A stretch of 64,000 nt of DNA from Escherichia phage vB_EcoM_H12. Location of the stretch: the sequence record PP952733.1; one strand, given 5' to 3'. This document shows, piece after piece, positions 43,861 through 45,388 of this stretch (position 1 is its first letter; each line of letters opens with the position of its first letter). Under the pieces are notes generated by a model that was given only the letters and a program-made list of their open reading frames with translations, searched no databases and was not told the DNA's origin. The translations under genes were made by a program, and so were the position numbers.

Positions 43861-43997
43861 GATTTTTTATAAGGCTACTGCCATCCTTCCATACCTTACC
43901 ACACCAAACCACACCATACCGAGCCACACCCTACCAGACCCTACCAAACCCGACCGAGCATCACTTAAAAATCCTCTTAGAAGACTCTTAAGTGATG
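43861..43997. repeat. ACC-rich intergenic repeat copy 1 with 10-bp inverted repeat
   Basis: GGCTACTGCCATCC then ACC/CCA-rich tract, then CATCACTTAA ... TTAAGTGATG; homologous to 45261-45388. Confidence 0.65.
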
Positions 43998-44009
43998 TAA
44001 TCGAATTTT

Positions 44010-44108
44010 AATGTAGCTCCGATTAACTACCCGCACTTTACCAAACCTCACCCTACCCTACCAGACCTTACCTAACCGCGCCGTACCTCATTAAAAGACC
44101 CTCTTAAA
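44010..44108. repeat. ACC-rich intergenic repeat copy 2 (degenerate)
   Basis: CTACCC..ACCAAACCTCACCCTACCCTACCAGACCTTACC tract similar to copies 1 and 3. Confidence 0.5.
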
Positions 44109-44139
44109 GACCTTTTAAAAAGGAGCCTCCGAAGAGGCT
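44109..44139 (-). terminator. Terminator-like hairpin downstream of 44151..44591
   Basis: AGCCTC-CGAA-GAGGCT with T-run on the minus strand. Confidence 0.5.
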
Positions 44140-44150
44140 ACCTAGTCAAC

Positions 44151-44591
44151 TTAGAAAGGTTTTCTACGTTGCTTATTAATGTTAGCTTTCATAGCAGCTA
44201 AATGGTTTTGCTGTTCAATCAGTCGTGAGCGTTCTTGATGGCTAAGTGCCATAGTGTTCACATTCTCAATCGCTTGAGTGGCTTGCTTTAAAGCTCGACC
44301 AATCTTGCCAGACATTTTACGTTTTGCAATAGTTGCTTGATGCTTAGGTTCAACCACACGATAACCAACACCCATTGAAGCAACCAGATAAATCTTCTCT
44401 TCTTTAAGAAGCTTCTCAATAAACTTCTCAAGTCGGTTTAGACGTGTAAGCGCATAAGCCTTCATTTCATCTTCGTACTTAACAATGTCACCTTGATAAG
44501 TTGGCTTCACAATACCTAAGAATGTGTCCATCTCAGAATGTGATACAGTGTCACCGTAACTAAACTTTGCTGCTAATGCTTTTGTATTCAT
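44151..44591 (-). CDS. hypothetical protein (146 aa)
   Basis: ORF in track; flanked by ACC-rich repeats. Confidence 0.5.
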   Translation of the reverse strand: MNTKALAAKFSYGDTVSHSEMDTFLGIVKPTYQGDIVKYEDEMKAYALTRLNRLEKFIEKLLKEEKIYLVASMGVGYRVVEPKHQATIAKRKMSGKIGRALKQATQAIENVNTMALSHQERSRLIEQQNHLAAMKANINKQRRKPF

Positions 44592-44593
44592 AA

Positions 44594-45196
44594 TTAAACG
44601 TTACCTTCTGAAATAACTTCTACAGAAAAACGACCAAAGCGTGGACGCCAATCACCTACACCACAAAGGTTGCCAGCATTTTCCAGAACCATCAGAAGTT
44701 CCTCTCTGGTGATTTGCTCTTCATCGAACATCAAACCGAACTCTACAGACCAGTCACGGAAGATTGGACGGTAGCTCATAACTCGTGCTGTGCCAATCTT
44801 AACAGATTTAGCATAGATAAAGTCTGGATTCTTAGCAAGTTCTTGTGGGTTTGCTGGACAGTTCTTGATAGTCATTGGGAAGACTACATCTGTCAGCATA
44901 ATGGCTCGGTCAATTACCTTACCAAGTTTGTTGAGTTTTGCACCAGACTTGATACAAGCCTCAATCATCTCACCGTTCATAACAAAACCTAACTGCTCAT
45001 CGTAGTAACAAGAAGTTACCAGTTGACTTTCTGCTAAGAGCGCATAGTCTTCGTCAGTCTTTTTACGTTTACTGGACAAAGACTTGTGATATTTTGTCAG
45101 AGGATTTAACGGGTCTGACAATGTATCGTTATGGCTCAGGAAAGGACGAGTACCAGTGATTTTGATATTTAACAGTTTCATAGCATTTAGCTCCAC
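44594..45196 (-). CDS. hypothetical protein (200 aa)
   Basis: ORF in track; flanked by ACC-rich repeats. Confidence 0.5.
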
Positions 45197-45260
45197 ACTT
45201 TAGTTGATTGTTAAGTTGTTTGTAAAGAACCCTCAACAGAAGACTCTTTAGAAACTTGGT

Positions 45261-45388
45261 AGATTTTTAACGTGGCTACTACCATCCACCCAGACTTTAC
45301 CATACCTCACCAGACCATACCTCACCTGGCCGCGCCTTGCCTTGCCAAACATCACTTAAAAACCCTTTTAAAAGACTCTTAAGTGATG
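45261..45388. repeat. ACC-rich intergenic repeat copy 3 with 10-bp inverted repeat
   Basis: GGCTACTACCATCC then ACC-rich tract, then CATCACTTAA ... TTAAGTGATG; homologous to copy 1. Confidence 0.65.

Follow-up and report, generated by a model that had tools for sequence, protein, structure and literature searches.

The stretch of DNA analysed here (the window) comprises 64,000 nucleotides of Escherichia phage vB_EcoM_H12 (sequence record PP952733.1), and the element in question lies at 43853-45446 on its minus strand, where three repeats, ACC-rich on the plus strand, bracket two genes of 195 and 146 amino acids. The evidence points to a complete type II locus of the Viral Interference Programmable Repeat (VIPR) system, belonging to the SUSP1 clade and carried by a Felix O1-like phage, a reading to which we assign a probability of roughly 0.95. 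On this analysis the three repeats encode guide RNAs (vrRNAs), and these are bound by Vipr, the protein encoded by the first gene of the cassette. VIPR, as described in passages of two recent preprints, is a form of RNA-guided DNA recognition that uses a non-contiguous code and has been proposed to predate CRISPR.

Organization of the locus

A periodic-motif scan of the whole 64-kb window returned only three tracts with CC every 5 nt (12-14 units), at 43889-43955, 44031-44087 and 45290-45346. Each is C-rich on the plus strand, and the same scan found no tract of that kind for other dinucleotides or on the minus strand. The periodicity is strictly 5 nt, reading (NNRCC)n on the plus strand and (YNNGG)11-14 on the minus strand, and repeat grouping gave 62-71% identity among the three copies. 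In the complete genome of phage fjerdesal (MN850605), a close relative, CC tracts are found solely in the same two intergenic regions; this confinement to one locus indicates a locus-specific structure rather than a dispersed repeat.

Constant sequences flank the tract of each element and are of two subtypes (A and B). Among 18 IMG/VR relatives whose 146-amino-acid protein is 99-100% identical to that of the window, there are 1 to 3 elements per intergenic region, and the two variable positions of the pentamer differ almost freely with RCC fixed and CC in register. A constant frame around a hypervariable periodic core rules out a coding repeat and a simple microsatellite; for the former, stop codons are also present in all frames of the tracts.

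The features described in the first-pass annotation of this DNA were all found where it had placed them, and its view that the repeats and the two-gene cassette belong together as a unit was upheld. The sequence that it reported as common to the copies, GGCTACTRCCATCC, occurs exactly twice in the window (43873-43886 and 45274-45287) and is part of the A-type vrRNA 3' tail; looser matches to it are at chance level (7 seen versus 3.9 expected). The arrangement CATCACTTAA-N19-TTAAGTGATG also occurs exactly twice (43959-43997 and 45350-45388) and was found in none of 100 shuffles. The strand asymmetry that it pointed out likewise holds, with the G/T-rich minus strand, which is the sense strand of the genes, being the relevant one.

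In order of transcription, the locus begins with a predicted sigma-70-type promoter, TTGACA-16-TATACT, which was identified by consensus scan (11 of 12 consensus matches) at 45419..45446, upstream of vrRNA1 and vipr; the same promoter sequence is present in SUSP1 and in relatives that have no vipr. Directly 5' of the first tract lies a hairpin of 18 bp with a 3-nt loop (45350..45388), recognised by its exact palindrome arms and by RNA folding. The vrRNA1 guide follows at 45290..45349, with 12 YNNGG units defined by sequence and periodicity scan and an NN code of TT AA AA GC CA GA AT CT GA AT AA CT; vrRNA1 of SUSP1 has the same 12-unit layout. Its 3' tail, GUGGAUGGUAGUAGCCACGUUAAAAAUCUACCAAG (45250..45289), includes the first-pass motif GGCTACTACCATCC and is invariant in at least 18 related loci; its limits are approximate and were set from the tail of approximately 40 nt given in the preprint.

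The two protein-coding genes are next. vipr (44594..45181), assigned by homology to SUSP1 Vipr, encodes a RAMP protein of 195 amino acids; both cassette genes were correctly recognised at the first pass, although this upstream gene starts at the ATG at 45181 and not at the GTG at 45196. vap (44151..44591), named vipr-accessory protein on account of its identity to the gene that follows vipr in SUSP1, encodes 146 amino acids and is followed by an intrinsic terminator found by terminator scan, AGCCTCTTCGGAGGCT and then a T-run (44114..44139).

Downstream of the cassette, a weaker B-type hairpin or conserved motif, AAAAGGUCUUUAAGAGGGUCUUUU, was found by folding 5' of vrRNA2 (44086..44122) and is kept in SUSP1. 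By sequence and periodicity scan the vrRNA2 guide (44031..44085) has 11 YNNGG units with the NN code AC GC TA AA CT AG AG GA TT AA GC, and its 3' tail (43998..44030) forms an H-type pseudoknot according to pairing and compensatory changes. This copy, at 44010-44108, had been described as a degenerate third repeat; a third copy it is, but it belongs to a second subtype in its own right, which differs in both its tail and its 5' hairpin, and is not merely degenerate. A second 18-bp hairpin on the sense strand, again with exact palindrome arms and supported by RNA folding, lies 5' of vrRNA3 (43959..43997). The vrRNA3 guide (43889..43958) has 14 YNNGG units by the same scan, 14/14 with CC in register, and the NN code TC CG TT AG CT AG GT TC AT GT TT GT AA AT. 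Its 3' tail, AAGGAUGGCAGUAGCCUUAUAAAAAAUCUGCCAA (43853..43888), includes the first-pass motif GGCTACTGCCATCC, is invariant in at least 19 related loci and is identical in SUSP1. A scan of the window with Rfam returned tRNAs only and no known RNA family at the pentamer tracts.

The cassette encodes close relatives of SUSP1 Vipr and Vap

A profile of the family of the 195-amino-acid protein matched PDB entry 36pp_D, 'SUSP1 Vipr protein', with an E value of 3.9e-81, and 185 of 190 residues (97%) are identical between the window protein and SUSP1 Vipr. Among 14 RNA- and DNA-contact residues that were checked, 13 are present (H17, K33, R39, E71, M72, K82, G87, K88, R138, C173, D177, W178 and R179); T175 is named in the preprint, and position 175 is V in both the SUSP1 PDB sequence and the window protein. 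The AlphaFold2 model has a pLDDT (predicted local distance difference test) score of 95, with Csm3/Cas7 RAMP proteins as its best fold matches. The family, with more than 500 members, carries no Pfam domain, and a C-terminal motif is reminiscent of RAMP glycine-rich loops.

The 146-amino-acid protein is identical at 145 of 146 positions to the product of the SUSP1 gene directly downstream of vipr. The accessory gene of the SUSP1 operon is reported to be vap1, which enhances protection, and the SUSP1 clade is defined by more than 90% Vipr identity (bioRxiv 10.64898/2026.04.26.720920, 10.64898/2026.04.26.720927). The window gene is taken, from its sequence, to be the vap1 counterpart.

According to passages of the two preprints, the components of a VIPR system are the RAMP protein Vipr, an accessory vap gene and vrRNAs of approximately 100 nt, each built from 9-16 YNNGG repeats and, after them, an invariant 3' tail that includes a pseudoknot. 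SUSP1 has one vrRNA upstream of vipr-vap and three downstream; its vrRNAs of approximately 100 nt co-purify with Vipr, and the complex represses transcription. Cryo-electron microscopy in the second preprint showed one protomer per repeat, with GGY flipped out and read by named residues and NN paired with target DNA such that every third target base is skipped (bioRxiv 10.64898/2026.04.26.720920, 10.64898/2026.04.26.720927). The units counted in the window (12, 11 and 14) fit the published range, and the SUSP1 intergenic sequences contain the same promoter, hairpins and tails as the window.

By analogy, each repeat of the window would be a gene for a vrRNA of approximately 100 nt, made up of 11-14 YNNGG pentamers and, at the 3' end, a structured tail that does not vary. 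The minimal Cas7-like RAMP protein Vipr would polymerise along this RNA with one protomer per pentamer, flipping out and holding each GGY; the two N bases of each pentamer would be left free for pairing with DNA, the target being read as NN-x-NN-x, so that each unit passes over one base, and the bound filament would repress transcription of the target. With GGY held and NN free, such a mechanism would account for the fixed GGY (RCC on the plus strand) and for the hypervariability of NN between nearly identical phages.

The correspondence with the SUSP1 type II system (PDB 36pp) is close: Vipr and Vap are 97% and 99% identical, promoter, hairpins and tails do not differ in sequence, a single vrRNA with 12 units lies upstream of vipr-vap and an array downstream, and guides of both phages match the same family of E. 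coli satellites. The two loci differ in that the window phage has two downstream vrRNAs and SUSP1 three, in all NN codes and hence in protospacers, and in their carriers, a Felixounavirus in the former case and a Suspvirus in the latter.

Several other interpretations of the tracts were superseded by the link to Vipr, namely a Rho-utilisation site on an antisense C-rich RNA, a Shine-Dalgarno-like ribosome sponge, a binding site for a TRAP-like ring, a G-quadruplex or R-loop origin, a primase-site array and terminase pac repeats. A search of the literature on Felixounavirus and Felix O1 repeats found nothing relevant.

Structure of the tails and 5' hairpins

The tail of the B-type vrRNA2 has a stem, GUAG/CUAC, and a loop, UAAUCGG, that pairs with UCGAUUA. 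All 11 pairs are formed (100%) in 13 distinct tails, three pseudoknot pairs show compensatory changes, and none of 500 shuffles reached the observed score. In the A-type tails a GGUAG/CUACC helix (vrRNA1) covaries with GGCAG/CUGCC (vrRNA3-type).

Both 18-bp hairpins are 39-nt elements with a 3-nt loop on minus-strand RNA, and both are predicted to be considerably more stable on that strand. The hairpin at 43959..43997 has a folding energy of -21.1 kcal/mol (z -7.3) versus -9.9 for the plus strand, and that at 45350..45388 one of -15.5 kcal/mol (z -5.9) versus -9.0. The corresponding values for the B-type hairpin (44086..44122) are -9.1 and -1.9 kcal/mol, with a z score of only -1.9. In the first-pass annotation the 18-bp structures had been reported as a 10-bp inverted repeat, the exact arms of which are indeed present twice; their real extent is the 18-bp stem, which on minus-strand RNA includes G-U pairs. 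Across nine variants of the stem, pairing is kept in 98.8% of cells; four G-U pairs are constant and one pair, the apical one, is compensatory (CG/UA). The covariation statistics are weak because the sequence hardly varies. The four G-U pairs would be mismatches on the other strand, so that the hairpin should form fully only in the sense-strand RNA.

As the published vrRNA, repeats plus tail, accounts for approximately 100 nt, the hairpin should fall just outside the mature 5' end. Term searches of the discovery preprint found no discussion of how the vrRNA 5' end is formed or of a 5' hairpin. Lying directly 5' of the vrRNA, the 18-bp hairpin could be a processing signal (for example for RNase III) or a promoter element by which the position of the 5' end is fixed.

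Another explanation would be that the elements serve a class of co-regulated genes as promoters, operators or terminators, the first two of which had been offered at the first pass. Record MZ726792 annotates the equivalent hairpin positions as rho-independent terminators and nearby sequences as promoters, and the hairpins are stable on the sense strand. There is, however, no U-run after the 18-bp hairpins in the window sequence, the tracts fit the definition of a vrRNA, and the element occurs nowhere else in the genome: it was found at this locus alone in the 64 kb and in the complete genome of the relative, and an element at one locus only marks no gene class. We therefore regard such a regulatory role as extremely improbable. 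A further suggestion, G-rich structured leaders, comes nearest in spirit among the options first put forward, since the SUSP1 precedent is one of G-rich RNAs made from the minus strand, but the main function of the repeats as guide-RNA genes was not part of it.

Predicted targets in E. coli satellite islands

According to passages of the preprints, the target of most SUSP1-clade guides is an E. coli satellite with a baseplate hub that shares 72% identity with the phage hub (bioRxiv 10.64898/2026.04.26.720920, 10.64898/2026.04.26.720927). The baseplate-hub gene of the window (30041-30838, plus strand) has matches of up to 96% nucleotide identity in 474 of 5,426 complete E. coli genomes, to genes labelled 'phage baseplate protein'; many of these chromosomal copies are broken by insertion sequence (IS) elements. 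The islands sampled (L145-L153) are approximately 10-15 kb in length, contain serine recombinases, small genes, a tape-measure gene and a baseplate gene, and are inserted near wrbA, near tonB or inside a DUF72 gene. Islands with a copy of the baseplate-hub gene are presumed to be satellites that hijack this phage family.

Target sites were scanned for in the nine satellite loci (229 kb) with the guides written as NN-x-NN under the published rule of a 1-nt skip. The best match of vrRNA1, 22/24 (92%), lies in a gene for a 'recombinase family protein' of approximately 506 amino acids in the tonB-site islands L147 and L148, on the coding strand and with all skip bases at codon position 3. For vrRNA2 the best match, 20/22 (91%), is intergenic in L146 and L148 (19/22 in L145), 53-56 nt upstream of a gene for approximately 236 amino acids that precedes the tape-measure and baseplate genes and is the first of the cluster that holds them. 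vrRNA3 matches best (22/28, 79%) in a recombinase gene of approximately 507 amino acids in the DUF72-site islands L150, L151 and L153, on the template strand and again with the skip bases at codon position 3. The vrRNA1 and vrRNA3 sites thus fall in two different families of satellite large serine recombinase (integrase-type) genes. The predicted targets are at L147:13462-13496 for vrRNA1, L148:8574-8605 for vrRNA2 and L153:13171-13211 for vrRNA3.

When the order of units was permuted (300 permutations per guide), the maxima were 19, 17 and 21 for vrRNA1, vrRNA2 and vrRNA3, respectively, and none equalled the observed score. Skip lengths of 0, 2 and 3 gave background scores only, and as a positive control the SUSP1 guides matched the same islands at 83-91%. 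No self-target was found in the window, where the best match was 71%, and blastn searches of E. coli genomes with the head-gene region (20500-24499) and with the vrRNA region returned nothing. The targets of the guides are likely to be chromosomal E. coli satellite islands that carry a copy of the phage baseplate-hub gene.

The satellite site matched by vrRNA2 (L148:8574-8605 and flanks; L145:11540-11640) contains TTAAGTCTCTTCTAAG, which resembles the phage motif TTAAGAGTCTTCTAAG inside the vrRNA 5' hairpins, and a second copy, CTTAGAAGAGG, is located directly before the downstream gene. This may be a shared phage-type regulatory motif.

Tracts and Vipr homologues in other viruses, and relatives without the cassette

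When IMG/VR was scanned, independently of the preprints, for DNA in which ACC recurs at 5-nt spacing, at least 120 contigs were returned. Approximately 45 among the contigs listed have heterogeneous pentamer tracts of 9-60 units, often as tandem arrays with a short delimiter (L047, L059, L068 and L045); in most of these the C-rich strand lies antisense to the genes nearby, and the array is adjoined by an open reading frame of approximately 190-200 amino acids. By phmmer, at least 29 contigs of the scan encode a homologue of the window Vipr, 28 of which are unrelated to the window phage, and in those contigs that were inspected the homologue adjoins the tract. Proteins at least 90% identical to the window Vipr were found in 117 Ounavirinae records and homologues in 12 distant phages.

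The styles of array vary: L047 (4600-5050) has seven blocks, most of 68 nt, with the delimiter CCATTAGCC; L059 (2200-3410) has at least 12 units with the separator AAATTAAATTCATTAAACC; L068 (2090-2620) has abutting blocks with CTGCC at each start; and L056 (3465-5210) has a single tract of 60 units. These are probably the staggered and other array types mentioned in passages of the preprint.

A cassette without flanking repeats, which had been named at the first pass as the case that would speak against their association, was looked for, and repeats were present in every cassette-bearing relative examined. The reverse situation is common. In 113 of 258 Felix-like phage records vipr-vap is missing, and one or two vrRNA-like hybrid units occupy the interval, still flanked by the genes for the signal-peptide protein and the ligase. 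The single unit of one such phage (L073:2700-2880) has a tail of the vrRNA3 type on one side and a hairpin and promoter flank of the vrRNA1 type on the other, as expected if the two flanking copies had recombined. In six further examples (L154-L159) the promoter, hairpin and tail are kept and the tracts range from nearly intact to partly degenerate. Several GG positions of the orphan tracts are degenerate in phages JH2 and EC6, and the tract of Shigella phage Tf is nearly intact; functional SUSP1 guides also include degenerate units.

These junctions and hybrid units, together with the variation from 1 to 3 units per intergenic region, are what one would expect if the repeats were primarily recombination sites, direct repeats at the limits of a mobile vipr-vap cassette through which it is gained and lost. 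Such a primary role nevertheless leaves unexplained the strict GGY periodicity with free NN, the covarying structured tails, the linkage of tracts with Vipr homologues in unrelated viruses and the matches between guides and targets, and we consider it very unlikely. Recombination is a consequence of the direct repeats and not their function; the first-pass proposal of recombination sites therefore describes a side effect, visible in the hybrid units kept by cassette-less phages, rather than the main role.

The same distribution bears on the idea that the G-rich tracts act as G-quadruplex or R-loop elements, in DNA or nascent RNA, for example at a replication origin or as a barrier to transcription. 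(GGTNN)n could make two-tetrad quadruplexes, the orientation of the predicted promoter gives a G-rich RNA, and the locus is situated among replication genes. Neither an exact 5-nt register nor a pyrimidine after GG is needed by quadruplexes or R-loops, however, and the tract is tied to a RAMP protein that shows base-specific GGY recognition in its structure; furthermore, the cassette is missing in approximately half of the relatives, which makes a role as an origin unlikely. The chance that this idea is correct is, in our estimation, negligible.

Comparison with other repeat-binding systems

One parallel is the backbone of class 1 CRISPR-Cas complexes, in which Cas7/Csm3 assembles on CRISPR RNA (crRNA). 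Common to both are the RAMP/RNA recognition motif (RRM) fold with its glycine-rich loop and thumb, one protomer per fixed increment of RNA, periodic flipping of bases and a variable guide capped by a constant handle. VIPR, however, has a 5-nt period in which three bases are sequestered, compared with 6 nt and one flipped base in CRISPR, the guide is non-contiguous and the outcome is repression rather than cleavage; cas1/cas2 are lacking, as is, according to passages of the preprint, a protospacer adjacent motif. A CRISPR-Cas locus was also rejected for the window itself, where there is no array of near-identical repeats and unique spacers, the units being 5 nt with embedded variable bases, and where the neighbours are a ligase, a helix-turn-helix (HTH) regulator and unknown genes. 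The window Vipr had no match among the PADLOC defence models, Cas included; one of 36 family members matched Cas6 (E 0.022).

Type III toxin-antitoxin systems (ToxIN/AbiQ) likewise have a protein of approximately 170-200 amino acids beside tandem short non-coding RNA repeats that it binds, and also function in phage conflict. This candidate was rejected: neither Vipr nor Vap has a Pfam domain at E<=0.1, and hence no ToxN-family domain, and the repeats are heterogeneous, internally pentameric and hypervariable in contrast to the identical units of approximately 36 nt of ToxIN. The RNA would also be a DNA-targeting guide and not an antitoxin. The trp RNA-binding attenuation protein (TRAP) resembles Vipr in that triplets at approximately 5-nt spacing are each bound by one subunit of an oligomer, but it forms a closed ring of 11 subunits, binds (G/U)AG with variable spacers of 2-3 nt for attenuation, and has neither a guide function nor homology to Vipr.

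The phage and its genomic neighbourhood

The window phage is a Felix O1-like phage (Felixounavirus). Its region matches 230 phage records at 80-99% identity, nearly all of Felixounavirus and related Ounavirinae, with Escherichia, Salmonella and Shigella as hosts. The genes around the locus run leftward and encode DNA polymerase, DNA ligase, the two genes of the cassette (unknown by annotation), the signal-peptide protein, the HTH regulator, dihydrofolate reductase and thymidylate synthase. At the VIPR locus, records MG065664 and MG065668, named 'Campylobacter phage' A132 and A126, are approximately 96% identical to Felix-like phages, and one 'Staphylococcus' record is also similar; these are probably mislabelled or contaminated entries.

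Elsewhere in the window, a cluster of 26 tRNA genes is located at 11089-16114 on the plus strand. The window begins within a non-coding region of approximately 1.6 kb that is dense in short TTAACA-type motifs (CTTAACA/TGTTAAG; window 1-1180 and L022:25150-26800); the window has 15 of them in its first 1.1 kb. This could be an origin, packaging or regulatory region.

Discussion

The VIPR locus of the window is real but already known, as the mechanism has been published (preprints, April-June 2026) for an almost identical locus; the window is a textbook instance of the system and our analysis is mainly confirmatory. Its basis is homology, architecture, covariation in RNA structure and target matches, from which we infer expression, filament formation and silencing in the window phage.

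A number of points weigh against this interpretation. Function in the window phage is transferred from SUSP1, and both source papers on VIPR are preprints. The 79% match of vrRNA3 is just below the 80% cut-off given in the preprint, no perfect guide match was found in the nine satellite loci, themselves a sample from 474 genomes with one, and searches of IMG/VR with exact 10-unit xNN patterns of each of the three guides found nothing. The structure of the A-type tail beyond its covarying helix is putative, and the 18-bp 5' hairpins are left unexplained by the VIPR model as published in passages of the preprints.

To the published description our analysis adds target predictions for three guides, a strand-specific 5' hairpin and widespread orphan vrRNAs. 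That both the 5' hairpin and the orphan vrRNAs, loaded in trans, represent new biology is a tentative suggestion that we consider unlikely.

The findings show that a VIPR locus can be recognised from raw sequence, and that many unrelated viral contigs have both pentamer tracts and Vipr homologues. For three new guides, blind use of the 1-nt-skip rule led to targets in the same E. coli satellite family, with wobble-phased skip bases. These targets, genes for two integrase-type recombinases and a site upstream of the hijacked tape-measure/baseplate cluster, suggest how a virulent phage might disarm its parasite. Orphan vrRNAs in relatives without the cassette could be loaded in trans by the Vipr of a co-infecting phage or satellite and, if this is true, guide RNAs would be a currency that can be shared or stolen in the conflict between phages and their satellites.

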